Of a stretch of DNA of 64,000 nt, positions 23,986 to 61,900 are shown piece after piece. Every line of letters starts with the position of its first letter. Position 1 is the stretch's first letter. The stretch spans positions 248,001-312,000 of the forward strand of contig QPGO01000064.1 of the NCBI GenBank assembly GCA_008632985.1, read 5' to 3'. Source of the DNA: Psammoneis japonica. Lineage: Eukaryota. The notes beneath the pieces were generated by a model. The model ran no database searches, was not told the DNA's origin, and saw only the letters and a program-made list of their open reading frames with translations. Made by a program: the position numbers and the translations under genes.

Positions 23986-26083
23986 TTTGCACTTCGCGTA
24001 GCATCAGCACTGAATGTTACGTAGCGCCCTTCATGATGGAATCGCACAACAGCATTTCTCTCTTGCCCTTTTTGCATAAATGCCAATGCCATGACCAGCA
24101 ATGACATTGTTGTTGTGATCAGGTCAATTGCGCCGGTTTCAGCTCTAGAGTAGATGTAATGCGTAGTTCAAATTTGGCGAAGAATTCCATGGTCCGTGCG
24201 TCGTCAGGATCAGAATCTTTTCAGCCACGGCACCATGATTGCACTGCTTTTTACTGATGTTTCCATGCAGGGCTTTGCTTTTTCATCAACATTGCAACAA
24301 CAATGCGGCAAAGCATCATCTCGGAAGCACCCACCAAACACCACATGCTGGCATCGTCAAGCAAGAAGAGAGGTGCGCTGCCTGCTGCAACAATGAAAAA
24401 TCTTGTGATGCTGCAAAGAGCACAAATGCCCAGCTCACTCAGTGTGTGTCCGAGCGCAAGGAGCAAGCAGAGGACCATGTTTTGGCCTCCAGAAAGCCTC
24501 CCATCAACAAAAACACCTCCTCTCATGGCAACTTTGCATCAAAAAATGTCTTTTTGCTCACTTTTGTTCTTTTTGCAAAAAACTCTCATCTCATGTGTCA
24601 AGAGCAACAAGAGCATCTTTCTCTCCTTGGGGCCTTCTTGCGCAACCCTTGCAAGAACCGTCTGGCTGAGAATGGATTGCATGTCATTCATGGACAAATT
24701 GCCACCAAGAACATTGGCATCTTTTGCCATCAACTGGCCCTGAAGGATCAAGACCACGAGCACGACCTGGTCACGGCATGGAGTGCAGCACAGGGAGTTG
24801 TGCTCTTTCTTGACAGCTCTTGGCCAGTGGACTTGGTTGGCGAAAGGGGGGCTGACAATCTCTGGGGATGTCACCATGATGTGACCTGTGGCAGCACACC
24901 ACCTGGCAACAAAGACTGGCCCAACCAGCCTTTCTCTCATTCTCTCCACGGTGTTTTGTCACGTCGTGCACTCCGACTGGCCGTCTGAAGTGATTGCGGT
25001 GGTTTGCAGTTGAACACTCGAACAGAGCCACATTTCTATGATGTCTTTGACGAGAAAATCTTAGAGCTTCAACAGTGGGGAGCAAAACGACCCATCGGCC
25101 ATCATTGCCGACACAATCTTTTCGTGTGTGCAGCAAAAATGAACGGCATGTGATGCTGCAGCTTTCGATCTGTGGGCTTTTCCCGTGCTTTTCGAGCCAG
25201 TCCTGTTGCCCCTAACTTCAAGATGTGACCAAAGTGAGCAAAGCGATCACAACCGGAAAAGAAAACTGAAGCACACAACAAGCAGTGTGATCACCTAAAT
25301 TTTGTGGGAAAAAAACCGTTGAACAATTTGGTGGATGAATGTGTTTCAATGATCACATCTCTCCCTCAAACACTGTCATCCGAACAAACCCTCAGTGTCT
25401 CACCCCCCTTTTCACATGAGGAATTTGGCTCTGCTGTTCGTTTTCTCCGATGACGCGATTTGAGAAAAAACCGTTAAATTGAGCAGTGATCACCTCCATT
25501 TCCCACAAAATGGAGGTGATCACTGCTTGTGGCCGGCAACCATTCGCAGCGCTCGTGGCATCGCTTCAGGCTTCGGGCAAGCTGTTCTATGCCACAAACT
25601 CTTGGACCATGATTCTCAACCAAAAATGCCATGAGCACAATGTTTCGCATTGGCATTTGTGTTTCAAATTCAGCCCAGAAAGCAAAGATTCTTCCCTCCG
25701 ACACGACGGTTGACGGTTCATCGTCCACCACGGCACACTGTGGGCAACAGTGCTGTGCAGAAAGGGCATGAAGAGAGAAACTTCCAAGAGGCAGATCAGA
25801 TCATCAAAGGACTTTCCCGCCCACTCGACACCTTTGAGAGATGTCATGAGGCTACCCGAACCGTTGTGCGTCACTCTTGAACTCTTGACATCAGGTCTTG
25901 CCATTCCCGAACCACGTCTGCGACTAAAAATGAGAATGCTGTGAGAAACCGCGACTGCAGTCACGGCGGATGCTGAACGATGACGAGAAATCTATGGCGT
26001 TGTCCTGCACTTTTTTTCTTGCAAGGTCGCTTTCATCCTTTCCACTGTTTTTTACTTTGCTCTGCAAGACGTTCATCCACATC

Positions 26084-28679
26084 ATGGACCGTCGCAACAA
26101 GCATGACGATGAAGATCAAACAAAAGAATCAGAACAAGATTTTGAAGATTTGGTCTGTGATTTCAAAGAAGCTGCGTCTCCTGACAGCTGCAAGGAAAAG
26201 ATGATGAACAACCCCCAGCACGCTTCTCATCAACGTCATCAAGAACGAAAAGAAGCCTTGATGCTTGACAGCGAACAAGTTGAGATGGCTTCAAACGATG
26301 TTTCAAGTGCACGTGATCAAGAGATGCCGTCTCCTGGAGTCGCAGATCAGCGGCACAATTCTGATGGCCATGATGACGTGCTTCCACATCCTGGAGCTCA
26401 ACGAGTGGGAGGAAATGACCAGGAGGATGAAGAGACTCTGTTCTTGTTTACAAATCCTCCTTCTACGTCTGAGCAAGAAGCAGCACAGGCGGCACCCACC
26501 CCGACGGCTTTTCTCGTGCCTCCACCAGGACGTTGGGAACAATGGTGGTCCAAGACCCGCAACCGTCATCTGTTGATTGGTGGGGTCCTGGCAGTCGTTG
26601 GGGCTCCAGTGGCGGGGGTGGTGACCTTGGCTGTTGAAACTTCACCTCCGACGACCCCATCTCCAACGAACGTGCTGGACTTGTCAGACCTGGACGGCTC
26701 CAACGGCTTTCTCATCAATGGAATCGGCAGCTTTCCCCTGTCATCTGCTGCTTCTGTGGCAAGTGCGGGTGATGTCAATGGCAACGGGATCCATGATGTG
26801 GTTGTGGGAGGTCAGTTTGCAGAAAGTTTGGACACTGGCGAGGCCCATGTCATTTTTGGGCGACATGACTTTCGTCCCGCATTCAGCGTGAACACCTTGG
26901 ATGGGTCCAATGGATTTGCTGTCTCGGGAGCCAATTCGTCCGACAGAACTGGATGGGCAGTGGTGGGTGTGGGGGATGTCGATGGTGATGGGTTTGCTGA
27001 TGTCTTGATTGGCGCCTGTGACGCAGATCCTTTGGGCCGCGACGCAGCTGGAGAAGCCTGCGTGGTCTTTGGCAGACCTTGTGGTTTCCCTGCCAATCTT
27101 GATTTGTCGACCCTTGATGAACGCAATGGCTTTGCGCTGCGTGGCATCAATGGAGGTGATCAAGCGGGGTGGTCTGTTGCGACAGCTGGTGATGTCAACG
27201 GGGATGGTTTTGATGACATTGTCATTGGAGCTCCTGGACCTTTTGCTTTTGAGAGCGGCGATCGTCCAGGTGCCGCATGTGTCATTTTTGGCAGAGCAGC
27301 AAGTTCTTTCCCTTCTGCATTTGATTTGTCAACACTCGACGGAATCAATGGCTTTTCGCTGATTGGGATTGAGAATGGTGACAATGCAGGGGTCTCGGTT
27401 GCAGGTGCCGGCGATGTCAATGGCGATGGTCTTGGTGACCTTGTTGTCGGGGCACACAGTGCCACTCGAAATGGCAATGTTGATGCTGGCGAGGCCCATG
27501 TCATTTTTGGAAGAGCCGGCGGTTTTGAATCTTCCATCAATTTGTCTGCACTCGACGGAAACAATGGTTTCATCTTCAAGGGGACTGACGAATTCGATCA
27601 CACAGGGAAGTCAGCAGCTGGCGGCGGCAATGTAAATGGAAACGGTCTGGACGATGTCATGATTGGTGCGCACAACGCTGGTCCGGGTTCTGATGCTCCC
27701 GGTGAAACATGTGTTGTCTTTGGGAAGTCTGCAGGCTTTGATTCTTTTCTGGATTCTTCAATGCTTGACGCGTTCCAGCCCTAGGTGGGACTCCGTGTGA
27801 CATTGGGCCCGTAGAATTCTACGTGCGAGCTCCGTAGTACGAGAATTTAATTAATGGATATATTTATCTTCAACATCAAATAAACGGCCAAGTTTGTGGT
27901 ACAATTATGCCTCTTACCACTCGACGTTTTTGCAACTTCGCCTGCCCTACGCGATTCTTAAGACATTGTAGAATCGCGCTGCAACAAAAAATGTCAAAAG
28001 TTGTTGGACGGATCGCTCAATAAGTGCACCGTAAAATGACACAAAATATCGAAAAAATCACGTAGAAATCTACGTGCGCGACATACGACGAGACTCAAAA
28101 AACTATCGATGTCACAGTTCAGTAGTACGAGGTCCCACCTAGACCTGGAACGCGTCGCTTGACGGCACCAATGGATTTGTCGTGAAAGGTGTCAACAATT
28201 CGGACCATGCCGGGGAATCTGTCGCTGGTGTCGGCGATTTCAATGGCGATGGTTTTGACGATGTCATTGTTGGTTCCCATGGCGCAAATCCAGACAACAA
28301 GGATGACGCTGGACAGGCATGCATTGTCTTTGGAAAGGGTGCCAGTTTTGCCTCTGCGATTGATTTGTCAACGCTGGATGCCAAGAATGGTTTCATCATG
28401 AACGGCGTTGCTCCTGGTGACTGGGCCGGGTGCGCAGTGGCCAGCGCTGGTGACGTAAATGATGATGGCTGTGATGGTGTCTTTGTTGGGGCACCCGGTG
28501 TTCTTTCAGGTGGTGAGGCCCATGTCGTTTTTGGTGACGGAGCGTGCAAAAAACCCAGAAACAGCAATGGCAGGGCCCCAGTGATGCGGAGGATTGGATT
28601 CACAAGGGCTGGAAATCAAGTTCAAATGCGAAGACAGTTTGTGTTGTCTCACGCCGCCCTTCTTTTTTGCTCTTCATGA
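26084..28679 (+). pseudogene. Type-II membrane FG-GAP (integrin-alpha beta-propeller) repeat gene, hypermutated and interrupted by a MITE
   Basis: Seven LDG.NGF...AGDVNGDG.DD..IGA...G.A[H/C]V.FG repeats, TM segment, PTTPSPT linker, zero Tyr. Removing 27767-28160 restores the frame (SMLDGTNGFVVKG). Confidence 0.9.
27767..28156. mobile_element. 390-bp non-autonomous TIR element (MITE), complete copy
   Basis: 25-bp TIRs GACGCGTTCCAGCCCTAGGTGGGAC / GTCCCACCTAGACCTGGAACGCGTC (2 mismatches), 4-bp TSD GCTT (27763-66 and 28157-60), second copy at 50940. Confidence 0.95.
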
Positions 28680-29600
28680 ATGGAATGTTCGTGGATGCAA
28701 TGTCGCCTTGTTGTTGTCAACGGGTCAATTTGTGGCCAAGTCAAATCTTGATGCGATTCCTTGGTGCGCGCAAAGTCAGGGGCGGAATCCACTTTTTTCC
28801 CTCCGACGTTTGCAGCTTTGCTTCAGCGCTCATCTTTGGCTGCGACATCTGAGTTCGTTGGTTTTCCTGCAATCATGTGCAAAACTGGGATTGCTTTGTT
28901 GTTTCGTCAACGGTGGTCATTGTTGCGACTGCTCATCTTGCTACAAATTGCCAAACACTTGGCAAAAACGCACGCAAACCGCCTTCGTTCGCCTCTGAAG
29001 GGAAAATTTCCATTCGTTGCGATTTTGTGCCAGAGCCACGTGGAAATTTACAGCGCTGCGTCTTGCTGCTTTCCGACTCCCGCCTCCGACCTCCGATGAA
29101 GACACGGCGAAGCACGAGGATGTGTCCGACAATGGCGGTGCCCATTGTCATCGATTCTGCCAATTTTCACACTCTCCCGTGTTTCATTTAACTCCAAATG
29201 GTGATGAAAGAGAGCTTTGGTGCTTTGCATTTTTTCCATTGGCGGTTTCACTCACATTTGTTCTCCGTCTGCACCATTTTGACATCCCAGCTAGTGTGAC
29301 GCGTAGTTTTTGCTTCTATTCAGGAGCATTGCGGCTTAAGTTGTCGTTCATCAACCAACACTGGTGAAATTCGTTCGATTGTTGAATGCCTGGTGTTGCT
29401 GTGTGCACATTTGAGGCAATGGGAGGGCAAGAAATGGCTCGTGCAAGAGCGCACAACGCGTCATGTTGCTTGACAGATGCAACAGATGGCAGAGTTGGAT
29501 GTGATCAATGAAGAGGTTGAATTTATGGTGCACAGGAGGGCAAACATCAACTTCTCTCTGTCGGCGGAGGGAGTGACTCGCTCACAACTAATTTTAGATT

Positions 29601-30320: not shown

Positions 30321-30624
30321 TGAAGAGTGCGAGCGGTGTCATCTGTGTTGCAAAAAATCAACGCGCGGGAGGATTGTGTACTTTTCTACGTAGGCTGGTA
30401 GATCGAAGATCGCCACCTGGACAGAATAAATCGATATTCGTCTCTGAAGATTTTCATTGATCTGCAACCCGGAAGTGAAAGATATTCCCTCCGACACCGC
30501 GATCCGTATCTTTTCCTGGCTTCGCGTTTTGCAACCCCGATAGGAGCTGAGAATGAATCGACAACTACTCTCCCCGAGATAGCATAACGTTGTTGTTAGT
30601 ACTCTGATCGTAGTAGCACTGAAA

Positions 30625-33181
30625 ATGAAGCTCTACAGGTCGGCCGCTCGTCTCGGACGTTACACAACGACGGCTCTTTCTCAGAAGCAGCGTCTCCTCA
30701 GAAACAGGCGATTGATTCAGCGATCCTTACAATCGTCGTCGTCATGCTTTGTTGTGCCCAAACGAAACGAATCTGTATTATTGGGATGTGTCTCGTACGA
30801 TCCTGCCGTGAGTTCCATTTGGGGCATGATGAAAAACTATCTACTGAAAAGCGGCGGTGTGAACGGCTTTGATTTTGTGCTGTACTCCAACTATGAGCAA
30901 CAGGTCCGAGCGCTCTTGGATGGGGGCATTGATATTGCTTGGAACGGTCCATTAGCTCACGTCATGTGCGAGCAGCGTGCTGATATCGTCTCGTTGGGTA
31001 TGCGGGATGTAGATTGTGACTTTGAGTCTATCGTAGTCGTCACCAAGGAGAGTGGGATCAACACAACGAGCGACCTACATGGTGCTCGCTTATTGTCGGG
31101 AGCGATGGATTCACCGCAGGGTCATGTCATTCCCCTACACTATCTCAAATCAAAACAGATTGACGTTACAGTCGATCCTCAAAACGAGGATCTTGGAAAA
31201 CACGGTGACACCGCGGTTGGTGAAATCAAAGCCATGGAGGTGATGCTTGCCAACTCCTCTGCAGATTCGGCGCAAGGAGCTCTACTCTCTCGCATGATGT
31301 GGGACCGAGCCGTGAATGGACAGCTCGATTCAATCAATGCGGCAGACTTGACAAAGCATGCCACTGTTCTGTCGGATGCGAGTATCCCACGATTTGATCA
31401 TTGCCAATTTGACGCCTTGCAATCCACGGCAGAAACTGGAAAGTTGGACTCGTTTTACGCCGCCTTGCACGGCATGGATTATAATGATCCACAGCAGCAG
31501 CCCGTCATGAAGTTGGAAGGCATTCAACGTTCTTGGGCCAAGCCACGACAAGAGGGATACGACATTGTCCGAGCCGCAATGGGAGTGGCTGCTGCATCTT
31601 CAGCACGAGCCCAAAACTTTGTTCCTCGCGGAGTGCGAGCCTTTTCCACCATAAATACCAGGAGGAATAGCAGCAGTACTACCAATACCAGCAACAATAC
31701 CAATAGACAACTCGAACCGGGCAGTCGTGTGGGTGTGATTGGGTGTGGCGTTGCCGGTCTTCAAGTCATTCGGTCCATGCGTGCACGAGGTTATTACGTT
31801 ACGGCGTTTGACAAGGCGGACAAGGTTGGTGGACTCTGGCGCGAGAACTATGCCAATTTTGGTTTACAAGTACCAAAGCAATTTTTCGAAATGCCAGACT
31901 TGGAAATGACGGAAGCCAAATGGGGTGAACTCGCCTCGGGACCCAAAGTTCAAGCGTATATTGAACGCTTTGCTTCCGAGTTTGACCTTAACAGCTCCGT
32001 TCAACTCAAAAATGGCATTGACAAGGTTATTCGTAAAACAGATGGAACGTGGACATTTCATACCGAAAAGGGAGAAACGCACGATTTTGACTACTGCGTC
32101 GTCTCGACAGGAATGTACTCGACCGTTCCGTTTGTTCCAGACGTTCCTGGCAGGGACACGTATTCTGGATCTGCCATTCACAGCAGCGAATTCATGGATG
32201 CAGATGCTGTCAAGGAAAAGCGGGTCGTTGTGATTGGAGGCTGCAAGAGTGCCACGGATTGTGCCACCAGTGCAGCAAACGCGGGTGCCGAGTCTGTCAC
32301 TGTCCTTCAGCGACAAGCTCACTGGCCCACGCCTTTGCACATTGCCGGGCTCATTCCGTTTCAACACGTGTTTTTGAGTCGATTGGGCCAAGCACTCGTC
32401 GAAGCCAAGGTGGGAGTCTTTCCAGGAAGTAAATCGAGTGCTTATGCCTTTAATCCCATTATGGGAGCCGTCTTTGCAATTGTTGAGCAGCTGTTTGCCT
32501 TTCACTTGGGCTCAAAGGCGACTTGAGGCCTAAAACAGGAGTCGTGGAGGATTTTTACGGCTATGCAGCTGTACAAGACGATAGCTTCAAGAAGGTGCGC
32601 AATTCTGGAAAGGTAGATGTCAAGCTTGGAGAGATTGAATCATTTACTGCAAATGGCGTAAGTTTCAAGGCAACGAGATTGAAGCAGATCAAGTCATTTT
32701 TGCGACTGGGTTCGGCAAGGATTATGGCAAGCTCTTTGAACCAAACGTCGTCAAGTCCTTGGACGTGCAGAACGACGGACTTCTCTTGTACAAACGAATT
32801 TTGCCTCCGTCCGTGGATCGGCTTGCATTTGTTGGTGCCGAATCGGCAACCATTTTCAACTGTACAAACTCAGGTTTGCAGGCCGAATGGCTGGCTCGAA
32901 CCCTTGCCGGAGAGACCAAGGCAGATCTCAGCGAGGAATCTCTAGCCACTGACGCGAATGCATTCAAGGCGTTTGCACGCTCTTGGATGCCTGCCAGTTC
33001 CTCCCGCTCCGCGTTGGTGCTGCTACACCAGCTGCACTATTACGATCAGCTACTCGAGGACATGGGCGAGAAACCATCTCGGAAATCCAACGTGGTTGCA
33101 GAGTACCTTGGGTCGTACTATAGTCGCGACTATGACGGCATTGTTGGTCGACCCGCTCGCGCTGCCGCTGCTGCATCGTAA
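30625..33181 (+). CDS. Fusion of PhnD/SsuA-type substrate-binding domain and flavin-containing monooxygenase, with mitochondrial-type presequence; frameshifts ~32520 and ~32670
   Basis: LLGCVSYDP...LYSNYEQQVRALLDGGIDIAWNGPLA, then FAD motif VIGCGVAG, GGLW..NY, FMO motif YSGSAIHSSEF and NADPH motif VIGGCKSA. Confidence 0.85.
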
Positions 33182-34141
33182 GCAATGGACGGTATTGCAT
33201 TTGAAAAGACGAACGCGGTTGGGGCTGGTTGGAATTGTACGTTAAATAATTTTTGAACATTTTGCTTTCGATTGTATTGTAAAGTAGAGTATTGGCTTTT
33301 GCATCTCTTAGTTAGCATGCGGAAAAGTCACCTTTCTTTGACTCTAGCACCCGTGCACTCTAGAGTGGAATGAACTGGCGTCTCAAGAAAGGATCGAGCC
33401 TCTGACCTTACCCTTGTACCACAATCATGTCAGGCGACCAACTGTGCTTCATATACAGGCACGAGAGGGGTATCCATGGCAAAGGCACGAGAAGAAGAAT
33501 AGAATACACAGATAGAACGAAAGATGGGGAATAAATAAAGCACACACAATGTCATGCTTTGTTGGAAAAATGACAGTGTGTTGTCCCCGACAGTGATTGA
33601 GATCTCGACCAATGATGTTGTTACTTTGCTTCTACTCTAACCCACCATTTTCTCAGAAGCTAGATTGCATTCTAGACAGACATAAAACTCAATGAGCCTA
33701 GATTCTCGCTTGAGGACAATCTCGGACGGCTCCATGTAGCTCAACAGCTAGAGTCTATTCGCTTGCTACAAATCCATAGAATGGTGTCGTCAAGCATCCA
33801 TCTGGCGGTCAACTCGCTCCTACGTCTGGGTGACGCCCGAAACCCACACATTCGCAAGCATCAGTTTCCGATGAACTTTTTTCAAACGAACCTCATTTCA
33901 CGACAAAATTTTGATCGAACCTACCTCAAGCAACCCACTTTTGGCGAGGCTTTCGGCGAGGGTAAATGGAGGGCAAACCTGCAGTTTCAAAAATCACTGC
34001 GTAGAAATACGTAGAATCAGTACCACAAGCAATCCCACCACAGACCATCGAAGCAAATCGGCAAAATAGTTCTGCTGCTGAAGCTCTCACAATCCTCTTG
34101 CTCGTTGTAGAGTTACGGTTGTACCCCTTGCTATTGCAGTT

Positions 34142-35218
34142 ATGCTTTTTATGCTATCAACTCGATACATGCGCTCTCGCTTTTGCACCCAGCTTCGTTC
34201 TGGCGTGATGGGTATTGCAGTTCATGACCCACAACAAAGAACTGTGCTTGCTGCTGCGGTTTTCGTGACTCGGCAGCAGCGTCCTTTTGCATCGATCGCT
34301 GGTGGGCAACATTTGGCGTTTGTTGAGTTACCCACCATCATGACGGTTCCCATGGGATTCGGAATGAGACGTTCGCTGACTGCTACACTCTCGCCTGGCT
34401 TGAGATCTTCTCTTGTAGTGGCACAGCGGGCCGTTGCCGGTTCTTGCAATTTCGCTCTTACTTTGCGACTCACCGACTCTGTTTCTCCTTCGTTCTCTTC
34501 TATGCAGATCGTACCATATCGTCCCACTTTCCCTCTCAGATGGCTCTTGATTTTGTTGGAATGTCGTCGGAAGATTGCTGAAAGGATCCAGTTGTGCCGA
34601 GCCGTTCAAGATTTCGTTCGAGAAAAGAAGAGACGCGTCGAGTCACGAGCAATCTTGATGAAGAAGGTGTACAAAGATATCAAGAGACTGCATACAACGA
34701 AGAAGCGTCGGCAAGACAAAGCGGATAAGCTTGCGATCCAGGATTACACAGGCTCGGGGTACTCGGAGATTAACAAGTTCCTTCGTGGTCAGCAAACGTT
34801 GTTGAATCCCGAATTGTTGAAGTCACGAGCCAGCAACGTGGATCACGCACTCCAGCATTGTCCAAAGCTGAACTCCTTCAGTGGTGTTGTGTATCGTGGT
34901 ACGGAGCTATCGCAAGATTTATACGATTCGTTGAAGCCTGGTGGCACCTTTTCCGACCCAGCCTTTCTGAGTTCATCTCGCAAGAAGGAAAAGTGCAAGA
35001 GGTTTATCACCGGTGAAGGCGGCTGCAATACTCTCTTCGAGATTGAGAGCAAGACGGGCTTGGACGTAAAAGCGTTGGCACTCAAAAAGAATCAGCATGA
35101 ATGTGAAGTATTGTTTCGGCCAGGCACAAAGTTTCTTATCAAGTCGGTTGAAGAGCGAGTCGATTCCATGTTTGGAAGAATCACGGTTGTCTCGATGGAA
35201 CAACTTGTCAACTGGTGA
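34142..35218 (+). CDS. ADP-ribosyltransferase exoenzyme-family (R-S-E clade) protein
   Basis: YTGSGYSEINKFLRG, VYRGT (R), FLSSS (S), HECEVLF (ExE). Confidence 0.85.
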   Translation: MLFMLSTRYMRSRFCTQLRSGVMGIAVHDPQQRTVLAAAVFVTRQQRPFASIAGGQHLAFVELPTIMTVPMGFGMRRSLTATLSPGLRSSLVVAQRAVAGSCNFALTLRLTDSVSPSFSSMQIVPYRPTFPLRWLLILLECRRKIAERIQLCRAVQDFVREKKRRVESRAILMKKVYKDIKRLHTTKKRRQDKADKLAIQDYTGSGYSEINKFLRGQQTLLNPELLKSRASNVDHALQHCPKLNSFSGVVYRGTELSQDLYDSLKPGGTFSDPAFLSSSRKKEKCKRFITGEGGCNTLFEIESKTGLDVKALALKKNQHECEVLFRPGTKFLIKSVEERVDSMFGRITVVSMEQLVNW

Positions 35219-43085: not shown

Positions 43086-43740
43086 TTCATCGTCGCGGTG
43101 TCATAAGCGGTTTCTCGTTGGATTACTTGAAAATATATGCCGACACAAGGCGCATGGAACGCTTATCTATCATTCCAACTAAGCTTTGTTTACAAGGGGC
43201 AAATGAGAAAACGACACCAAGCAGCTGCTTTCTTTAAGTCTGGTGTTCAAAATCTACTCCAGAATCTACGGTAATGCAGACTTCTCGCTGAAAGATTGAG
43301 TTCTAGGTCCTACCTTTTGCGACATCCAACACTTTATGAGAGATGGAAGTAACACTTCTTATTGGTTCTTTTCATGATATACCCCTTGTAACTAGATGCT
43401 CCAACAATAGTCGAACTTACCACGGCAAAGACGTACCAAGCTCTTTACACTTCAACGTTGCGGTGTCATCAGGGGTTTCTCGATGGCATGCTCATCTATG
43501 ATTTCCAACTGTGCTTTGTGTGCAGGGGGCAAATGAGAAAAGGACACCTAACAGTTGATTTCTTTTAAAAAATCCGGTGTTGAAAATCCACTGCAGACTT
43601 GTTCGCTGAAAGACTGAGTTCTATGTCCTGTTGCACACCTCATTAGAGATGGGACTGACACTTCTTGCAGGCATTTTTCATGACATGCCCCGTTGAACCA
43701 GATGCTCCAAAACCAGTCGAACTTGTTGCAGGCAAGGAAA
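43086..43740 (+). repeat. Diverged tandem duplication (copy 1 ~43086-43450, copy 2 ~43451-43740)
   Basis: Shared GCGGTGTCAT, GGGGCAAATGAGAAAA, CGCTGAAAGA.TGAGTTCTA and AGATGCTCCAA..AGTCGAACTT. Confidence 0.9.
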
Positions 43741-43819
43741 GCGTTTGGGCGCTGTGCACACCAAAGACACAAGAGCAACTTGGACAACTGACTTGGCTGT
43801 CACAAACAACATGTGCACA

Positions 43820-44650
43820 GTTACAAACATTTTTTTCTTGCGGCATCTATTTTTCTGCCTCTGCAAGCTGCAAGAATCCTCACAATGAGCCTTTCATTGA
43901 AGTCAATTGCACTGCGGTGCATTTTGAACTCCTTGACAAGTTTTTCAATGGTCTCTGGAGACATGGATCCCTCCTTGACCTCCAGAGATGTGCCAGCATT
44001 TTCCATGTAAGAGCAAATGCATGGTCAGAAAAACTTGCGTGCTTTTTCAGTGGTGAGCACATTTTTTGCCAACAGTCATTCTCGTGTGAACCAATTCCCC
44101 AATGTCTTGCTTTTCCCTCTTCCTTGACAAGCAAAGGTCGCAAGCAATGGCGCTGCTTTGTCAGCACCCAACAACATTCCTGCCATTTCTGGGTGACACT
44201 TGGTTGTTCAGTCAGTTGCCACAATTATTTTGCAACCTGCTCAAGGCAGCCACAGGAGAAGACCTGTTGACAGTGGCTTCTTGTGGTTGCTTTGGCACTG
44301 ATTGGAGGATTGCATCAACAGGAATCATTGTGGCTCTCAGAGTCATTGTGCAGAAATTGTGTGGAAGAGTGCCAGAAACAATCGTCATCATTCTGTCCAC
44401 CCTTCCACACATGAGTGTCAACTTCTCGGGAAATCAATTGAAATGTCATCTGACCAAAGGCACTGCTCTTCACCATGCAAATCAAAACACCTTTGGTCAA
44501 ACAACACTTCAATTGAGTTTCCGAAAAGTCGCCAGCTCCAGTCACCCTCTCGCACGACATTGTGCGCATTTCTCTGCACGATTTGGTGTTTTTCCTTGTG
44601 ACTCTTGTGACATTTTCAAATGATTCCTGTTGCATGCAATGTGGTCAAAG
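43820..44650 (-). mobile_element. Degenerate IS630/Tc1-mariner-like DDE transposase C-terminal relic
   Basis: Frame-broken TKCHPEMAG..ECCW..TKQRH, VLTTEKARKF and IEKLVKEFKMHRSAIDF segments. Confidence 0.5.
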
Positions 44651-45199
44651 GGGGTGAAGGCCACCCTTTGCACAAAAGGCGCAGCTTTTGATTGTGCAAA
44701 AGTGGCACGATGCAAGAGCAATGGCTGCAACAAGCACTTGAGTTCTTTTGTCAAACTGGCAATGGAAATCAACAAAGTTGTGGCATTGGCACTGGCATCT
44801 TTGGTTGTTCTGTACAAGGGTGTGATGGCATTGAGGAGATCAGCACAGCTTGCAACATTTTTGGCTTTGGGGGTGTTGTTGGGACCAAATGAGGCACCCG
44901 TGCAAATGACATTGGAAGCAACCAAAAGGACATTTGGGCTCTGCTGCAATGTTTTGGCCCTCCAACTTTGATGAAAAGGATTGGCCCATGCTGCCACAAT
45001 CACTCCAAAAGGTTCAACTGGCAAGGAGCTGGTGCCGCTGAAGGAGAAGTGAGAAAAAGCATCAGCAGTTGTTGCACTCAATGCAGCCGTTGACCCAATG
45101 GCAATGACAACCCATCTTTCTAGAGAAATTGAACAGCACAACCACCTTTCATCACACAATGCTGTGCCAGTTGCCTGGAGTTTCTGCTGTCTTGTTGTT

Positions 45200-47450
45200 T
45201 TCCTCAATGGCCAACATCACATGAATGAGATTGTTGGTTGTTGTGTGGGACTGTGTGTGCACCTTGGCACTTCTTGCTCTTTGCAGGCATGACACACCAC
45301 AACATGAGGAGGCTCTCCACACTCAGCCCAAACTGGCTTTGGGACACCCTGCCCATGTTCTCAGCTGCAACCTTGTCAATGTCTGGGAACAGCAAACCAT
45401 CTCTCTTGGGTGCACCACCCAGCCTTCTGGATTGAATTTTGAATCTTTGTCAATTTTGCATGCCTGTCATGACGTGCCCACAGAACAGCTTGCCCCACAA
45501 TGCATCTGCGCTGAAGCTGGGCATCTTGCATCTTGTGCGCAACCCTGCAGTGCTCCTGGTTGACATTTTGACAATGTGTGTTTGCTGTTGACAAGGTGAT
45601 CAGGGAGGACTTGGTTGCAAGGACCTCAAAAAACTTGAGGGAACAAGCAATCTGTTTTCACAAAACCTTTGTCCCCCGTGCATTCTGTGCTGGGCAGAAT
45701 TTTCCAAAGCCTGAGACAGATGTCTCTTGGCTCTGAATCCTCATCCAATGTGTGACTTTCTGGAGTCAAGGGGCCACCAAGCCAGCGCAACACATCCCAA
45801 CAATGCTCTTTTGTCATTTCCAAGTGCACACCAAGAATGTCACAATGCAGCTCCTTCTTGCTGCGCAGCCAATGAAGACACTCATGAATCTCAAGCTGTT
45901 GCAGAGGCTCCTCTGGAGAATTTTTTGTGACAATCCCAAAGCCTTCTCACTCAATTTGCTCTTCCATTTGATTTTGATTTTAACACAACAACTGTGTCAC
46001 CCCCGCCACTCCAGAGTCTTAAATCTTTTCACATCGGCATCTGCCAAAGCCTCGCAAATGTCAACCACTCATCAGCGGCATTGATGGCATGCTCACAATT
46101 TGACTTTGTTGCATTGGCAGAGCCATCTGCTCCATGAGTCAAGCTGCAAATGCTTTCAATGTCAGTTGTGTGCAAGTTGGAACTCTCGCCTTCAGTGCTC
46201 CAATTGCTGTTGCTGTCATCATCTGACCCAACAAAGTTGCCAGCTTCTGAAAACTCATGATGACTCTGCTTCCTCCAGAGTGAACATTTCTGGCATGTTG
46301 CATTGAATCTTCATTGGTTGCATCCTTGTCCATTGCACCCTCATCAACCAACTTTGCCACCTCCTCCAGTTCTTTTCCTGCCAAAAAAATTGACTCAAAC
46401 CATCCAGCAACTCAAGACATTTTGAACCAGTTTTCATTTGGCACTGTCTTTCCACTCTGCAATCATGGCTTTTTCCTTTGGGCAAGCTCCTGTCAACTCC
46501 ACAAAATGTCTCTTGTCAGCCCATGCACCATGTGCCCTGGTGTGCTCAAACAACAGAGCACAAGGAGCAACAAAGTCTGTCCACAGAAAGACAGAGCAAC
46601 GTGCCTTGTTGCCATGCTCTGTGTGTGCACAGTGTGCTGCAACATCCTTTTTACGGTCTCCAAAGTTGCATCTTTCCCATGAAACAACTCAGCTGTTTTT
46701 GATGCATCCTTCTTTGTGAATTTGTTGGGCCTTCTTTCATTTTTGAAATGCTTGCAAGGCATTGGCAATGCAGACAGGAATTCTCCATGCTTTTCCCACC
46801 TTGGCCTGTGTTGATTTGGACAATTTAAGACAGCAGCAAGCACAAAGCCAAAAATGCAGTCAGCATGCTCTCAAATGGGACAACAGTGAATGAAACACTT
46901 CACAGTCAGCACCTGTTCAAACTGAGTTGGTGTCACTGGATCACACACAAGTTTCTTCTCCTTTGAGTCAAACATCACTTTGGGAACCTCCAACATGGCA
47001 CATCAGAAAGAAAGGAAGCCACACACTTCTCAGCCTTGAAAGCAATTGAAGCCTGCCCAAACAAATCCTTTGCAGCAATGGGGTTGCTGTTGTGCCATTC
47101 TTCAGAAGTCAGTTGGCAGCGGTTTGCAGAGTTGTCCTCAAGAAACTCTGCCAAACAGTCCTCTGCATGCTCAGTGAGACAAGCCAAATCAACATCAGGT
47201 TCTGCCTCAGCTTTGCACTTCTTCCTGCTCTTGGCAGCCCAGCTGCTGACCTCTCTTTTGTGCATTTCACATCAGCCCTGGCAATGACTTTAACTCCACA
47301 TTTGAAAGCACATGATTGTTCTCTTTGTTTTCTCATCTCTTTGGCTCAAATTGACAAACTCTCCAAATGTTTGACTGCCGCAAGCTTGCTTGTGTTCCTC
47401 AAGCTTCTGACAAGCAAGATGCTCATTGCGCGCATGTCCTTGCAATGGTT
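45200..47450 (-). mobile_element. Degenerate PIF/Harbinger-ISL2EU-type (DDE_Tnp_4) transposase relic
   Basis: EEWH...AAKDLFG, PRWEKHGEFLSAL, ELFHGKD, LEIHECLH and LRLWKILP..GDKGF motifs with frameshifts. Confidence 0.65.
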
Positions 47451-47599
47451 TTATGAGTCACCTGCTTTGTTCTTGGCTGGAGGTGAAGAAAAGCAGCTTT
47501 CCATGCTTTTTCACACTGCGCTGAGGGTCAAATTTGTCAGCAACCACCTTTGCATCTGCTGCGAAGAACGAGTGTGAACGAAAGCAGAGCGAAGTTCGA

Positions 47600-50500
47600 A
47601 AAGTGAAAATTGTGAGATTGAATTTTGCTCTGTGATTTTTGGTTTCTCCGAAACGAGTTCTCAATGGCCTGAAGCTTCTGCACTGCTTCCACAGACAAAA
47701 GGCCTTTTGGAGAAGATGTTTGTGACAACAGATTGTCCGGATGCGATTGCTGTTGACACGTGAGATGTCAACATCGTCAATCGATCGCACCTGCAATTTT
47801 CGACATCTGATCAACTCTGTGTGATCGTTCTGTCCTTTGCATGCATCCACGACTGTGGCTGCGATTGACGCGCAAATGACACACAATTGCAAACATGTGT
47901 GCAACAGTTGCGTGCTGCACTCGCCTCCCCAATTGCACATTGAAGTTGTTCGTCAAGTGGAACAATTTGACGGACATTGATTTTGTCAACAATGTCTCCA
48001 CGTTAACTGCATTGTGCCATTGGCAATGACTGTTGTTGTTTTGGGTGGGCCAGCATGCATGGGACCGTTTCAATTTCCAAACGTCTTTTGAGAGCATCGT
48101 GATTTGTCTCACGCTTCATGTGTGTGCATGATGCTCTCTGTGCATGTGTGCATGTGGTGTGCTGTGGCATTGCATCGAGCATTCTCTCTGACATTGTTTT
48201 GTTCATGTGGGCACAAGGACCAACTGTCCTGCTGTTCTTTCATGGTGTCGATTGCACACAGCATCATGATTGCACACAGCATCATGCCCAGTGCTCGATG
48301 TGCGCTCTTGTTTGTGGCATTCACTTGCTCGCTGGTGGATTTCGCGCAGTTTGGCGGCTCACTTCATGTGCCACATTGCTCTGCTGCACCACCACGTTTC
48401 TCAAGCAGCAATCAACGATGGTCAAGGATGTGACCATTTCGTCTTGGCAATCAATCCTGTGATGGTCATGAATTCCATTGTGGATTTTTTGTGCTTCAAC
48501 CATCTGTCAGTTGGATTTTGGTCGTCACTTGGATGTTTCTTTTTGACATGCCGGCATCATTTGTCATTCCAAAGGCATTGGTTTCGTGCACCAAGTGGAC
48601 AAATGTCCATTTTTCTTTTCTTTTTCTAGATCTTTGGCACATCTTGTGTGTCGACATGATGCATGTTTTAATGTCTTGCCTCGCACATTGTGCAATGCAA
48701 CCGCGCGGGTGTTGTGAGATTGTCTTTTGCCAGTGTGAAGTGGATGCTGCAACAGTTTTTCTGACCGTCCTTTAAAACAAGGCGATTTTGTCCTTGTGAC
48801 ATGAGCATTTTTCGATCTCGCTTGCCTCCACGAAAAGTGTTCGCACAACATGTCGCGTCCGACAATTTGGAGGGAAATGTCTTTGTCCCATTTTAACGGC
48901 AGGACATTGTCGCAGGATTCAACACTCCGCAGCAAGTCGGCTTTTTTGATTTTAAATTGTGGTGTTCCATGTTTGAAACAAACAGCGTTTCAATCTTTCA
49001 CAATTGGTCAAATTCCTTTTAAATGGACGCCCCCAAGGACTGTGACAGGAGAAGGTTCTCACACGTCGCAGAATCACGTCAGATTTTTCACGGTGAGGTC
49101 CACTGGTTCGCCCCACTCCTTTGTCTGAGGAACTTTTCAAAAGGATTTTGAACCTCTTAAGAAGGAGACTGAGTGGCTGCATTGTTTTGGATTGGATGCA
49201 TTGCTGCAGCTGTCACTTGATTGGAATCGACGGCGTGACAATGTGAGTCGAAGACCACTGGTCTCATCATTGACTCTGTTTGCTGCGTCACATTTCTCAA
49301 TGTGATCGGCATTCAGCTGGAACATTTTTGTGTCGAAGAGTGCATCAACATTCTTCACAGGGCAATTGCTTCACTCCCATTTGATTTCTTCAATTGCGCA
49401 GTCTAACATGATTGCAAGACTGGACACCAAGTCGCGTCCCATGATCACATTGCTCGACCTTGAAGAAGATTTCGTGTCATCGACACATGCTGTTTGAACA
49501 TCAGTGTGTCTTAAATTTGCACAGTGAGAACTGGACTTGGTTTCTGCTGTCAGTCGTGAAGAGCTCACCCTTGGTTTCCCAAGTTTTTTGGTGGCGGACA
49601 TTTTGGTTCTCAACTTTCGCACGATTTTGCGCAAAATCATGGGCTGATGATGTTCTTTGTCGAGAAGAACGTGCTGAAGCTTGTTTTTTGCTTTTCTCAG
49701 AGAAGCAGTCATGCAGATGGCAAGAACAGGACTCGCGCAACATGCCATGATGTTTTTTCTGGGTTTCCAGACGTCCTGCAATGCGGCACACTCCTCGATC
49801 GGTGTAAATTTTTGATCGGACTCGATCGGGTCAATTTTTCTAAATTGACAGTTTTGTTCATCAAGCATTTTAGAGTCGCAACTTTCGCTCTTGTTTTCTC
49901 GTTCCTTTGCCAAGCAACTCGCTTTGTTGGTTTTTGTGAACTGCCCAGTCACTGTGGAGCTCAGTTCCTCTTTCACAGAGGTGTTTCTGCTGTCGTCACG
50001 CGACCGCGCGCGATTGCTGTCAGAGCATCACATTTTTTTGGGTCTCTTTCAGAGCCACCCTTGCACTCTTTTGCTCTTTTTCTTGTTCAAGGAACTCGCT
50101 TTGAGCATTTTTTTGAACTGCCTGATCAATCATGATGTTCAACTCTTTTTTTGCGAGCGGCATTTTCGTTGTCGCGACGCCACGTGCGACTGCCATTAGA
50201 ACAGCGCCGTTTCGGATCACGCTCAATGTGTCCACGGCATTCTTTCGCTGGTTCATTTTTAGAACAGCTTCAATCCATGATGCAGGTGTTCTTTTTTCAA
50301 AGATTGCACCTTTTGTTCACTTTGGATTGTTCAGGTGCCATGTGGGAGACCATTTTGGAATCAAATTTGGAGCCATTTTGGTTTTGGAATCAACTTTGCT
50401 GTCAGCGCCTGATTTGACACATTTTTTCATCATGGACGTCTTCAACGACCTTTGGATGACTCAAAACTTAATCAGCTCATCAAGGATGAGTTGCGACAGT

Positions 50501-50939
50501 TGATTGTTTTGGACAGTGGACTGATGCTGCCATCCTTGCGGTGCGAGCAATGGCCAATGGCTCACGGCTCGGTTTCCCGCCAGATTCAACTTAGAATCGA
50601 TTGAAGGGTCGTGTGGACGCTCTTCATTGACCTCTTGGGTCGAATGGGCACTCTCTTGCTGCTGAGAGCCTTTGGTTTCTTCAGATCATCTCAAAACAAA
50701 TGACTCTGATTCTGAAGTGCAGTTCCTGGAAAGACATGAGATGAGAGACTCTTGAGGCACTTTCCAACGGTTCCTTCTTGCTCTTTGGACTCGAGGCTTG
50801 TCGATTTGGTCTCAAAAAACTCTTCAACAGTCTCTCCTTGCAAAGTAGATGCATTTCTCGGATCTGATCGACTCGGGACTTGCGCTCTCTGCAGCCATGA
50901 CTTGGTGTAGATTTTTTGATGATGCAGTGCACTTGTGGA
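47600..50939 (-). mobile_element. Degenerate Ty3/gypsy LTR retrotransposon relic (gag, protease, integrase; RT/RH largely missing)
   Basis: Protease-like VLLD...IMGRDL..LAIMLD...IKWE, LSLLLKRFKIL, integrase end NGTM..GDIVDKINVRQIVP, and PPT GGGGAGGCGAG (47930-47920) followed by TG at 47919. LTR end not defined. Confidence 0.7.
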
Positions 50940-51311
50940 GACGCGTTCCAGCCCTAGGTGGGACTCCGTGTGACATTTGGCCCGTAGAATTCTACGTGCG
51001 AGCTCCGTAGTACGAGAATTTAATTAATGGATATATTTATCTTCAACATCAAATAAACGGCCAAGTTTGTGGTACAATTATGCCTCTTACCACTCGACGT
51101 TTTTGCAAATGCACCTGCCCTACGCGATTCTTAAGACATTATAGAATCGCGCTGTAACAAAAAATGTCAAAAGTTTTTGGACGGATCGCTCAACAAGTGT
51201 ACCGTAAAATGACACAAAATATCAAAAAATCACGTAGAATTCTACGTGCGCGACATACGACGAGATTCAAAAAACTATCGATGTCACAGTTCAGTAGTGC
51301 GATTCCCACCT
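50940..51311. mobile_element. Second MITE copy, right TIR truncated
   Basis: About 96% identical to 27767-28141. Ends at TCCCACCT with no terminal 15 bp and no TSD. Confidence 0.95.
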
Positions 51312-51945
51312 TGGCCCATGTTGATTTGGACAATTTAAGACAGCAGCAAACACAAAGCCAAAAAGGCAGTTAGCATGCTTTCAAATGGGACAATGGTGCG
51401 TGAAACACTTCACAGTCAGCAAATGTTCAAACTGGGTTGGTGTCACTGGATCACGCACAAGTTTCTTCTCCTTTGAGTCAAACATCGCTTTGGGAACCTC
51501 CAACATGGCACATCAGAAAGAAAGGAAGCCACACACTTCTCAGCCTTGAAAATGATTGAAGCCTGCCCAAACAAATCCTTTGCAGCAATGGGGTTGTTGT
51601 TGCGCCATTCTTCAGAAGTCAGTTGGCAGCGGCTTGCAGAGTTGTTCTCAAGAAACTCCACCAAACAGTCTTCTGCATGCTCAGCGAGACAAGCCAAATC
51701 AACATCAGGTTCTGCCTCAGCTTTGCGCTTCTTCCTGCTCTTGGCAGCCCAGGTGCTCTCTGTTTTCCTGTCAGTGCAAAATTTCAACCTGCAGCCTTGA
51801 ATCATGACAATGTCCCTTTTGACACTCAAGTCCGTTTGCTCCAAAATTTTTGTTTGTCGCATCTGTGTGGGCCCCATGGGTCGCTGCTCCTCCCATTCCA
51901 ACAGTTCAAAGGCAAGGAGGAGTTTCTGCCAACTTTCGCCCATGC
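51304..51945 (-). mobile_element. Second copy of the Harbinger/ISL2EU-type relic
   Basis: 51304-51752 aligns without gaps to 46794-47242. Confidence 0.9.
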
Positions 51946-59879: not shown

Positions 59880-61900
59880 GGCGCCAACACACTGATTGAT
59901 AGATGCGATGTTGTGTGTGCACTGCACTGCTTGTTTGCTCCTGCTGCTTCTCTTGCTGTTGTCTGCAAAAGGCCAAACTCCAAGGAGAATGTGCTCATGC
60001 ACAAGATAATGCACGGGTGACAGGCACGTGCAAGCTGCAGCAGATTGCACCCCACCATCAGTGGCGCACCTGGTGGTCATTGCCCTTCTTTTGTCCTCAT
60101 GGGAACAGGACAAGGAGATGCATGCTTTCAGATGACAGCTGGCTGACACTGGCAAGCAGCTTGTGGCACGAGCTTTCCACTGCAGTGGGAAGCCCACAAC
60201 ACAGATGCATGCACCACATGTCACATGCCTGCGCTGATTTGTGGGGAGCTGTGTTGATGCCGTGTGCCGGCTCTTGAGAGGGCGCCAGTTGCGACAAGTG
60301 AGCTCTCACACCCTGCTGGGGATTGTTGTGCACTCGATGTGACCAACCAAATGCCACAGCTGTTGTTCCAACAACAATCTTTGTGCAACTCACCTGGCCT
60401 GTTTTTGTTGCCAAAAGTTGGCACACAAGGCCATGTGCACCAGCTCGGCTCAAACTCACAATTTTTCAACCCCTGCACTGCCGTTGGTGGGTGCTCTGCA
60501 AGGCCCATTACAAGTTTGTGTCCAGTCTGCAAGGTGCTTGTGCATGACACATGCAGAGCCACAGCATTCCCTGAATCTGAGTTGTTGCATCACAAAGCAT
60601 GAACAGTCAACCAACAGCGGCTGGCTGGGTGTTGCCAGCTGCAAGAAGTGAGCCCACATTTCCTGATGGGAAGGGCTGTGCTGTGTGCTCAAGTGCACCC
60701 TCCCTCCCTGTGTGCAGCACCTGCTGTTGAAAAATTTTGTGCGCAAAGCTGTGCAATTTGTTTGCAGCAGATGTGGGAAAAAGTGTGCTTGCTTGCAAGT
60801 GTGTGCCAACAGAACACCTGCACACTTCATGTGACCAGCCAAATGTGCTGCAGTTGTTTTGCCTCAATGGCAATCTTTGTGCAGCCTGCCTGGCCTTTTT
60901 GTTCATGTCAAAATTTGGCACACAAGGTCCTGAGGATTGTTGCACACTTGGTGTGACCAGCCAAATGACACAGCTGTTGCCTCAGCAACAGTCTTTGTGC
61001 AACCCACCTGACCTTTTTGTTCGTCATCAAATTTGGCACACAAGGCCATGTGCAGCAATGTTCAAACTCACAGTTTCAACCCTTGCATCAGCACTGGTGC
61101 TGCAAAGTCTAAGACAAGTCATCCAGTCCACCAAATGCTTGCAAAGGATTCAAACAAATCATCATCATCATTTGATGTGTTCACCCCACATGAGAACTTT
61201 TGAACAAATCACAAGGCTTTCCATGTGTTTTTGTGTGTTACACACACTTGGCTCCAAATCTAAAACAAGAACAATCCTTTCAAGCCTCACATTGTAAACC
61301 GAGCACACCCCAAATGGCACCATGCTGTCACCATGAACTCTCACATTTGTCATGAGCTGACATGTGTTTGTGTCTAACCTGCAAAGGCAAAAATGCAGCA
61401 GCAGGCAGGTGATCAAGACTTTCATTGATGTGAGTGTGCTGAAGATTTTCAGGACCAATGGCAAATGCAGACAGGGCAGCTTGGAACAATTTCTCCTTCC
61501 TCCAGCGCATTTGTGCACCCAGTGCATTGGATTGCATGGTGTGGAGGCACTGCAAAACTTCATGGAATGACAAAAATCCACTTCTGATTCAGTTTTGCTT
61601 GACTGGTTTGATGCCTTGTTTGTGACCAAGCTTCTTTGCAACCCATGCAGCAGATGCAGAAAGCTCTTGCTTGACACTTTACATTGTGGGGGTTTGTCAA
61701 TGACACCTGTGTTGTCAAAGCACCCACCTTCAAAGGCATGAGTGAACATGGCAACAGCATTGTAAACATGGTTGCCAAACAACTCAACAAAAACATGCAA
61801 CACACACAGCTTTGTGCCACGAAGAAAAAAGAAGCTGCGAAGCTGCAGGCGGAACCTTTGCTGGTTGAGCAGCCAAAAAAGGCAACAAAATCTAACTTTT
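59880..61900. other. TpA- and CpG-depleted domain D (unidentified repeat relic)
   Basis: TA and CG both rare, TG/CA dominant, between the AFG1 promoter and the stop of the next gene. Confidence 0.9.
60320..61100 (+). repeat. Three ~125-bp degenerate direct repeats
   Basis: TGTGACCA.CCAAATG...TCTTTGTGCA..C.CCTG.CCT...TTGGCACACAAGG at ~60338, ~60830 and ~60953. Confidence 0.85.

Follow-up and report, generated by a model that had tools for sequence, protein, structure and literature searches.

Bigelowiella natans is so far the only organism for which targeted A:T→G:C hypermutation of nuclear DNA has been described (Mettrop et al., bioRxiv 10.64898/2026.01.13.699255). According to the preprint, in mutation-accumulation lines of this species 230 of the 231 mutations in two integrated viral regions were A→G or T→C changes, all of them on TpA, while the genome carries 124 clusters that are depleted of TpA, enriched in CpA and TpG, and rich in transposable element (TE), foreign or unannotated genes (10.64898/2026.01.13.699255). 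The targets are described as integrated DNA of nucleocytoplasmic large DNA viruses (NCLDV) and virophages, and an adenosine deaminase, ADAT2-like, is proposed to act on them; flanking bases are not analyzed in the preprint's main text (0 uses of context, flanking, trinucleotide or tetranucleotide; 10.64898/2026.01.13.699255). Here we analyze a 64-kb window from Psammoneis japonica (contig QPGO01000064.1, positions 248,001 to 312,000; coordinates below are those of the window) and in particular the TA-poor interval 43741-50939. We put at about 0.72 the probability that this interval belongs to one of three or more discrete domains of the window that have undergone a targeted, flank-sensitive conversion of TpA to TpG or CpA of the kind seen in B. 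natans.

The window is 47% G+C and gene-dense, with long unbroken open reading frames (ORFs), P450, TYW3-Kelch, syntaxin and mitochondrial carrier genes being among those identified by Pfam. The nearest named relatives of the P450 are diatoms (Thalassiosira spp., Fistulifera solaris, a Bacillariaceae metagenome-assembled genome and a Helicotheca transcriptome; 39-49% identity), and its best unnamed homologues stand at 72-80% identity. Over most of the window TA occurs at 27-62 per kb with an observed/expected ratio (o/e) of 0.4-0.75 (about 0.55 in bulk, the reference made up of 46,697 nt of ordinary DNA from the same window). Five sharply bounded stretches (Table 1) instead hold 2-9 TA per kb (TA o/e 0.03-0.14), accompanied by raised TG and CA (o/e 1.5-2.1) and by CpG lowered to a varying extent (CG o/e 0.14-0.9). 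The 7199 nt of 43741-50939 retain 31 TA against about 285 at bulk density, a loss of about 89%.

The TA depletion is mutational in origin, TpA-specific, confined to domains and graded by flank. At the left edge of the 43741 domain, where TA drops from 13-19 to 0-2 per 200 nt over about 400 nt, the TA-normal outer copy of a tandem repeat aligns with its mutated inner copy at 71% identity. At 13 sites a TA of the outer copy is replaced in the inner copy by TG (7) or CA (6), the reverse occurs at none, and all TA differences between the copies (13/13) are thereby TA→TG/CA. Because only the inner copy, inside the edge, is mutated, targeting follows position in the domain rather than sequence similarity. 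The 46793 and 51303 duplicates differ at 32 positions, including 4 TG↔CA swaps, 5 CpG↔TpG/CpA differences and one CA/TA difference, and each swap implies two independent mutations of one ancestral TA. Similar TG↔CA swaps separate the window from contigs of run X1 at 44271/2, 45188/9 and 48846/7 (among the 40 of 748 difference places listed in this comparison), and the surviving TA at 44226 is CA in run X1 contigs.

Book-keeping over the 13.7 kb of TA-poor DNA, with bulk as the reference, gives the same picture, the losses of 486 TA and 370 CG (856 in total) standing against a gain of 827 TG+CA. By flank class (Y, pyrimidine; R, purine), 148 YTAR+YCGR are lost against 164 gained products and 233 RTAY+RCGY against 265. 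The initial annotation had called the pattern an enzyme-like fingerprint rather than compositional drift, and a dinucleotide-specific, flank-sensitive and domain-bounded process is what these data support. Between two young copies of a miniature inverted-repeat transposable element (MITE)-like sequence 5 of the 12 substitutions are TA↔TG/CA, although TA accounts for only 15% of positions in the element (p=0.02), which hints at a process that may still be active or was so recently. TA↔TG/CA differences between the window and run X1 contigs are a further hint.

The consequences for a coding sequence are visible in the FG-GAP repeat gene of the second TA-poor domain. Its translation contains 0 Tyr, as against 2.3% Tyr in 60 homologues. 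The five positions that are Tyr in at least 95% of homologues are now all His (2) or Cys (3), and two further conserved Tyr repeat positions are replaced in the downstream ORF, making 7/7 overall. The codons at these seven positions are CAT (three), TGC (two) and TGT (two), corresponding to TAY→CAY or TGY. The frame is unbroken over 616 codons because TA→TG/CA creates no stop codons; since this conversion makes neither TAA nor TAG, nor a new TGA, whatever the frame, the TA-poor domains contain many long ORFs in all six frames. The closest relatives of the FG-GAP gene are about 48% identical and mostly bacterial, and the gene is probably dead, though alive-looking to gene finders.

The TAs that remain are far from a random selection of contexts. 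In 43741-50939 they comprise TTAA (13), TTAG (4), CTAA, CTAG, TTAC, TTAT, GTAA and GTAG (2 each), and CTAT and GTAC (1 each), or 21 YTAR, 5 YTAY, 4 RTAR and 1 RTAY, with zero ATAN. The exact recount of 21/31 YTAR agrees with the approximately 21 in 30 counted initially. The accompanying null expectation of a quarter by chance was too generous, as YTAR makes up 260 of the 1847 TA in bulk (14.1%; 11.1-17.2% among 30 blocks of 7.2 kb), and the enrichment is even stronger than supposed (binomial p=1.4e-11 vs 14.1%, 6.7e-7 vs 25%). TTAA alone supplies 13/31 survivors vs 4.1% in bulk (p=1e-10). Extending the count to the window's other TA-poor stretches, in line with the check that had been proposed, replicates the effect more weakly, as these stretches pooled hold 8/24 YTAR (p=0.014), 12 YTAY, 4 RTAR and 0 RTAY. 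The preference is, as had also been stated, not absolute: CTAG became CCAG and CTAA became CTGT in the mutated tandem copy, and a TCAG/TTAG pair is found in the 46.8/51.3-kb duplicate.

Taking all TA-poor domains together, 1 RTAY survives of about 175 expected, 25 YTAY+RTAR of about 290, and 29 YTAR of about 76. Survival of individual contexts relative to bulk descends from TTAA (0.63), CTAA (0.52), TTAG (0.32), TTAC (0.20), GTAA (0.14) and CTAT (0.13) through CTAG (0.09), CTAC (0.07), GTAG and TTAT (0.06), and ATAA and GTAC (0.02) to 0 for GTAT, ATAC, ATAT and ATAG. A multiplicative half-site model, with one factor for each base 5' of T (equivalent to its complement 3' of A), yields survival factors of 0.84 for T, 0.42 for C, 0.17 for G and 0.06 for A, and with its four bases beats a Y/R model (likelihood-ratio p=5e-4). 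The next base out is T in 65/110 survivor half-sites (59%) vs 28% in bulk, with similar shares in 43741-50939 (38/62, 61%) and elsewhere (27/48, 56%); TC-TA, for example, survives at 0.32 and CC-, GC- and AC-TA at 0.02-0.06. YTAR is a coarse label for this graded flank series, and the refractory context is a T-run before TA or an A-run after it. What stands of YTAR as the survivor class is that it survives best; Y/R is too coarse a division, the second flank base also counts, and CTAG is unprotected (2 survivors vs about 23 expected), doing no better than many non-YTAR contexts.

Our favored explanation is a targeted process that has turned nearly every TpA in these domains into TpG or CpA by an A:T→G:C change at one of its two base pairs. 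It runs fastest at R..Y flanks (ATAT, GTAC and ATAC/GTAT being nearly extinct) and slowest after a T-run or before an A-run (TTAA, TTTA/TAAA). As the process is flank-sensitive, the remaining TAs are its slowest-reacting sites and not a random sample. The enzyme may be recruited to silenced or foreign chromatin, since CpG decay suggests long-term cytosine methylation, and may attack the flexible TpA step of duplex DNA, with T/A-tract flanks hindering it. Most likely the agent would be a DNA adenine deaminase (A→I, copied as G), the leading candidate, with a thymine modifier as a live alternative. CpG decay looks like a separate and slower process than TA loss because CG o/e differs among the TA-poor domains. 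The CpG loss is itself flank-biased in TA-poor DNA, YCGR being down 56% and RCGY 36% vs bulk. Many of the differences between the window and run X1 contigs are CpG↔TpG/CpA, which suggests ongoing cytosine methylation in domains such as 43741-47516 and 59936-61720.

Which base of the TpA context is read cannot be taken from survival, as a rule placing the mutated A in T-A-Y leads to the same survival as its mirror, A in R-T-A: under either one YTAR is slowest. Only the direction of change at YTAY and RTAR sites separates the two: YTAY goes to TG under the 3' rule and to CA under the mirror rule, with RTAR the reverse. Direct comparisons give 9 changes for the 3' rule vs 8 against (53%, 95% confidence interval 28-77%), contributed by the tandem copies (5:4), FG-GAP Tyr codons after C (1:3), the MITE (3:0) and site 44226 (0:1). 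A 3'-only rule with the rate ratio fitted to survival predicts about 84% and is rejected at p=0.003. The initial annotation had placed the mutated A preferentially in T-A-Y; the flank-biased survival behind that proposal persists, but the choice of the 3' base over its mirror is not established. A flank reading that is symmetric on the two strands looks the simplest description of the direct data. Because the flank effect looks symmetric between strands, an agent that reads the duplex TA step fits better than one reading a loop or single strand, as a TadA-like enzyme would. The likeness to TadA-type deaminases drawn at the outset is not upheld: a target A preceded by T holds by construction for a TpA process (equally a T followed by A), and beyond it no TadA-specific feature appears. 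The half-site factors have 3' T (0.06) mutated at least as strongly as 3' C (0.17), and no deaminase domain was found among the window ORFs scanned with Pfam.

Several considerations weigh against the reading we favor. The direction test comprises 17 informative sites, of which 3 (gcc-CAT, in FG-GAP repeats) are possibly non-independent, and several flanks differ between the copies it compares. The survivors number only 55 in all TA-poor domains, 31 of them in 43741-50939, and the ancestral NTAN composition is represented by the window bulk rather than by true ancestors and is checked by closure at the class level only. A composition test of YTGY+RCAR vs YCAY+RTGR gives 278 vs 120, favoring the TAY (3') rule, and does so most strongly in the CpG-poor domains (105:11 in 43741-47450 and 75:15 in 59936-61720). 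The ratio is reversed in the FG-GAP domain (30:58) and weak in 47451-50939 (43:29), and we did not use this test to decide between the rules because it is heterogeneous among domains and because CpG decay, being flank-biased, yields the same products. The interval 43741-50939 is without a Pfam match or homologues, leaving a foreign origin of the mutated DNA unsupported there. Finally, the enzyme, any DNA modification and the chromatin state are putative features read from the sequence.

The alternative closest to the initial proposal is a TadA/ADAT-type deaminase whose preference for T-A-pyrimidine is set by the 3' base in single-stranded DNA or R-loops, so that YTAR survives as the class without TAY on either strand. 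It accounts for YTAR being the best-surviving class, five putative early MITE changes all place the changed A in T-A-Y, and composition in 43741-47450 and 59936-61720 together runs 180:26 in its direction. Nevertheless we consider it unlikely, as the direction count falls well away from its prediction, the C-TAT codons of the FG-GAP gene went to CAT three times, on the wrong strand for the model, and neither the unprotected CTAG nor the effect of the second flank base belongs to it. The natural TadA site is UAC, yet 3' T is here at least as mutable as 3' C, and no deaminase gene is found among the window ORFs scanned. In favor of the model, an ADAT2-like protein is a candidate named for B. natans (10.64898/2026.01.13.699255). 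A lesion on thymine would fit all survival and difference counts equally: TA reads identically on both strands, every A→G change is a T→C change of the partner strand, and the attacked base is not separable. In this model, which we hold to be rather improbable, a TET/JBP-type hydroxylase producing bases like 5-hydroxymethyluracil (5hmU) would prefer R-T-A in silenced domains, with mispairing or mis-repair giving T→C. The T in TpA is the preferred one for modification in dinoflagellate 5hmU. Against it, 5hmU:A pairs are not known to be strongly mutagenic. The B. natans authors, moreover, favor deamination (10.64898/2026.01.13.699255).

Somewhat less probable again is that the flank pattern reflects no enzyme specificity, either because poly(dT:dA) tracts are shielded by a rigid narrow groove or by nucleosome exclusion, or because some of the survivors are young back-mutations. 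Shielding would explain why protection reaches the second flank base and favors T-runs and A-runs rather than pyrimidines as such, but the graded first-flank series C>G>A does not amount to a tract effect. Back-mutation could supply about as many TAs as the 10 non-YTAR survivors of the main domain; as the source of the YTAR excess it was rejected, since with 673 of 2841 TG/CA flanked by Y..R it predicts about 24% YTAR vs the 68% found (p=3e-7). The notion that nothing was mutated in place, the TA-poor sequence being foreign DNA that arrived TA-poor, base-calling artefacts at modified bases or retro-copies of ADAR-edited RNA, strikes us as very improbable. The top FG-GAP homologues are largely bacterial, and the comparable domains of B. 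natans are linked to viral inserts (10.64898/2026.01.13.699255). However, copies within the window differ one way, TA→TG/CA, in addition to TG↔CA swaps, and conserved Tyr positions have become His or Cys, observations that go most of the way to refuting it. Run X1 contigs match the TA-poor sequence apart from 1-7 differences in each piece of 420-1253 nt, although this run may share its sample with the assembly. Retro-copying is further opposed by the near-equal involvement of both strands (7 TG, 6 CA) and by the mutation of a low-copy gene and of one of two tandem copies, and ADAR favors a 3' G, which is relatively protective here.

Table 1. Coordinates of the TA-poor stretches of the window and of features within and beside them
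Feature	Position	Strand	Description
TA-poor stretches	24278-27638, 28285-29117, 43741-50939, 51380-51900, 59936-61720		TA o/e 0.04-0.09 per stretch vs about 0.55 in bulk
Second TA-poor domain	24278-29117	+	TA o/e 0.06; carries FG-GAP repeat gene
FG-GAP repeat gene	25934-27781 and 28143-28676	+	Pfam FG-GAP E=8.1e-24 and 8.9e-10; split by MITE
MITE-like element, second copy	27767-28130		interrupts FG-GAP gene; terminal inverted repeats of about 25 nt
Tandem repeat straddling left edge	43154-43724	+	about 330 bp; outer copy 43154-43418 TA-normal, inner copy 43483-43724 mutated
Left part of flagged domain	43741-47516		mostly low-copy, TA-poor, strongly CpG-poor
Duplicate pair	46793-47259 / 51303-51766		93% identity
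Right part of flagged domain	47517-50939		member of many-copy repeat family; T-rich on + strand
MITE-like element, TA-normal	50940-51302	+	363 nt, 27 TA, inside TA-poor domain
TA-poor continuation past MITE	51303-51900		51303-51766 duplicates 46793-47259; 0 TA in 51380-51900
Third TA-poor, CpG-poor domain	59936-61720		8 TA; internal diverged repeats

The flagged domain is composite. Its left part has TA o/e of 0.03-0.04, CG o/e of 0.14-0.53 and TG/CA o/e of 1.6-1.9, and in run X1 it has a summed word depth of 62-77 between 44993 and 47516 vs about 57 in flanking genes, rising higher over 43731-44992. The right part is less extreme in composition (TA o/e 0.09-0.14; mild CpG depletion, CG o/e 0.72-0.83) and reaches a summed word depth of 4,900-27,300, depth not being copy number; 5012 run X1 contig pieces align to an 18.9-kb stretch at 80% likeness or more. 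Pfam scans of the TA-poor domains, first with 8 ORFs and then with 100, yielded nothing above the cut-off, the best match being Vint (E=0.0019, 18.5 bits vs 27), and no viral gene was found in these scans. ORF 49374-50027(-) has no relatives among 123 candidates and ORF 44545-45216(-) has 0 matches among 1.84 billion representatives. Short matches (80% likeness or more) connect 44240-45085 to run X2 contigs that run on into TA-normal sequence, and this segment may be the mutated counterpart of a sequence present unmutated elsewhere.

The right edge of the domain at 50939/50940 is abrupt because the TA-normal MITE starts there. The two MITE copies, both lying within TA-poor domains, are 96-97% identical and are separated by the 12 substitutions considered above and 1 indel; the element has a summed word depth of 118,203 in run X1 vs about 57 for neighboring genes. 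The copy at 50940 is without its right terminal repeat and joins the 51303 duplicate at a short common CCCACCT-like stretch. A mutated MITE copy upstream of the 46793 duplicate was sought and rejected, purine/pyrimidine identity there being about 0.5, which amounts to no homology. In the third domain (TA o/e 0.07, CG o/e 0.16, TG/CA o/e about 2.0) TG↔CA swaps distinguish the repeat units; a three-unit alignment of 60300-61095, whose TG↔CA sites balance out by the way it is built, is uninformative on direction.

One sequencing run containing the window sequence (X1) and two runs of the same sample were located, with no RNA run listed for it. Elsewhere in the window, a single run X2 contig spans 57852-58483, 58569-58839 and 59158-59727, omitting gaps of 85 and 318 nt in the manner of a spliced transcript, and run X2 may be an RNA library despite its label 'DNA?'. 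Its cover of the TA-poor domains is low or absent, which we do not take as evidence of silence. Two ORFs stand out by their domain content. ORF 34082-35215 encodes an ADP-ribosyltransferase exoenzyme-type domain (Pfam ADPrib_exo_Tox 9.5e-12, ART 5.7e-7), here within a genome that appears to be algal, and ORF 30583-32523 joins a phosphonate-binding periplasmic-type domain (E=3.3e-21) to a flavin monooxygenase-like domain (E=1.2e-22), an unusual fusion.

A deeper footprint than that of B. natans in a genome of diatom affinity suggests that the process is widespread among algae of the SAR group (stramenopiles, alveolates and Rhizaria). If so, it would affect how diatom genomes are annotated, how TEs are dated and how genes are predicted, as mutated DNA holds long spurious ORFs (TAA and TAG vanish and no new stops arise) while real genes lose all Tyr. 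We raise tentatively, as a conjecture we would sooner doubt than accept, that a chromatin-targeted editor of duplex TpA (an adenine deaminase or a thymine modifier) is common to diatoms and chlorarachniophytes, serves as a defence resembling repeat-induced point mutation (RIP) and has an intrinsic flank fingerprint. If this is true, the fingerprint (RTAY fastest, TA next to a T-run or A-run nearly immune, strand-symmetric) could be used to identify the enzyme, and genes targeted by the editor would persist as long ORFs without tyrosine, since TA→TG/CA makes no stop. The flank signature is in any case a first quantitative handle on the agent and argues against assuming a TadA-like single-strand reader; a natural editor of A:T pairs in double-stranded DNA would interest base-editing technology.

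Among better known systems, RIP in filamentous fungi is alike in being a defence-like, dinucleotide-specific transition hypermutation of selected segments that leaves a dinucleotide skew. RIP requires duplicated sequence, whereas here the mutated DNA includes low-copy sequence and just one copy of a tandem pair. It also converts C to T mainly at CpA and thus makes TpA (PMC7296669), the dinucleotide that is destroyed here. TadA, ADAT2-ADAT3 and TadA-derived base editors resemble the present process in that A→I would give A→G and in that the target A follows U or T. The natural substrate of TadA is the tRNA anticodon loop, at UACG; here 3' C is not preferred over 3' T and the flank effect looks strand-symmetric. 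Hyper-editing by ADAR likewise produces A→G clusters in repeats. ADAR favors a 3' G, in contrast to the relative protection that 3' G gives here, where TTAG and CTAA survive relatively well, and its substrate is RNA, so that retro-copying would be needed, while here both strands (TG 7, CA 6) and low-copy DNA are affected. On the 5' side it favors U (10.64898/2026.01.13.699255). APOBEC3 and AID offer a parallel: these enzymes hypermutate foreign or mobile DNA by context-specific transitions and leave a flank signature. Their target is C, in TC, CC or WRC contexts, as opposed to A/T at TpA here.

The closest correspondence is with B. natans, as described in the preprint: both show near-exclusive A:T→G:C change at TpA in discrete domains with ordinary DNA alongside, and both retain a long-term TpA-poor footprint. 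The organisms differ, B. natans being a chlorarachniophyte and the nearest named relatives here being diatoms. Depletion is deeper here (TA o/e 0.03-0.1 vs a Rho of 0.45 for their NCLDV region) and CpG decay co-occurs with it; de novo events were measured in B. natans and the footprint only is seen here. As to the type of target, 47517-50939 belongs to a many-copy repeat family and the FG-GAP homologues are mostly bacterial, but 43741-47516 lacks a Pfam match or homologue. Our literature search, judged by titles and abstract openings, found no report of TpA hypermutation in diatoms. The process in the window is TpA hypermutation of the B. natans kind in a diatom-like genome, to which it adds a flank signature absent from the main text of that preprint (Mettrop et al., 10.64898/2026.01.13.699255).

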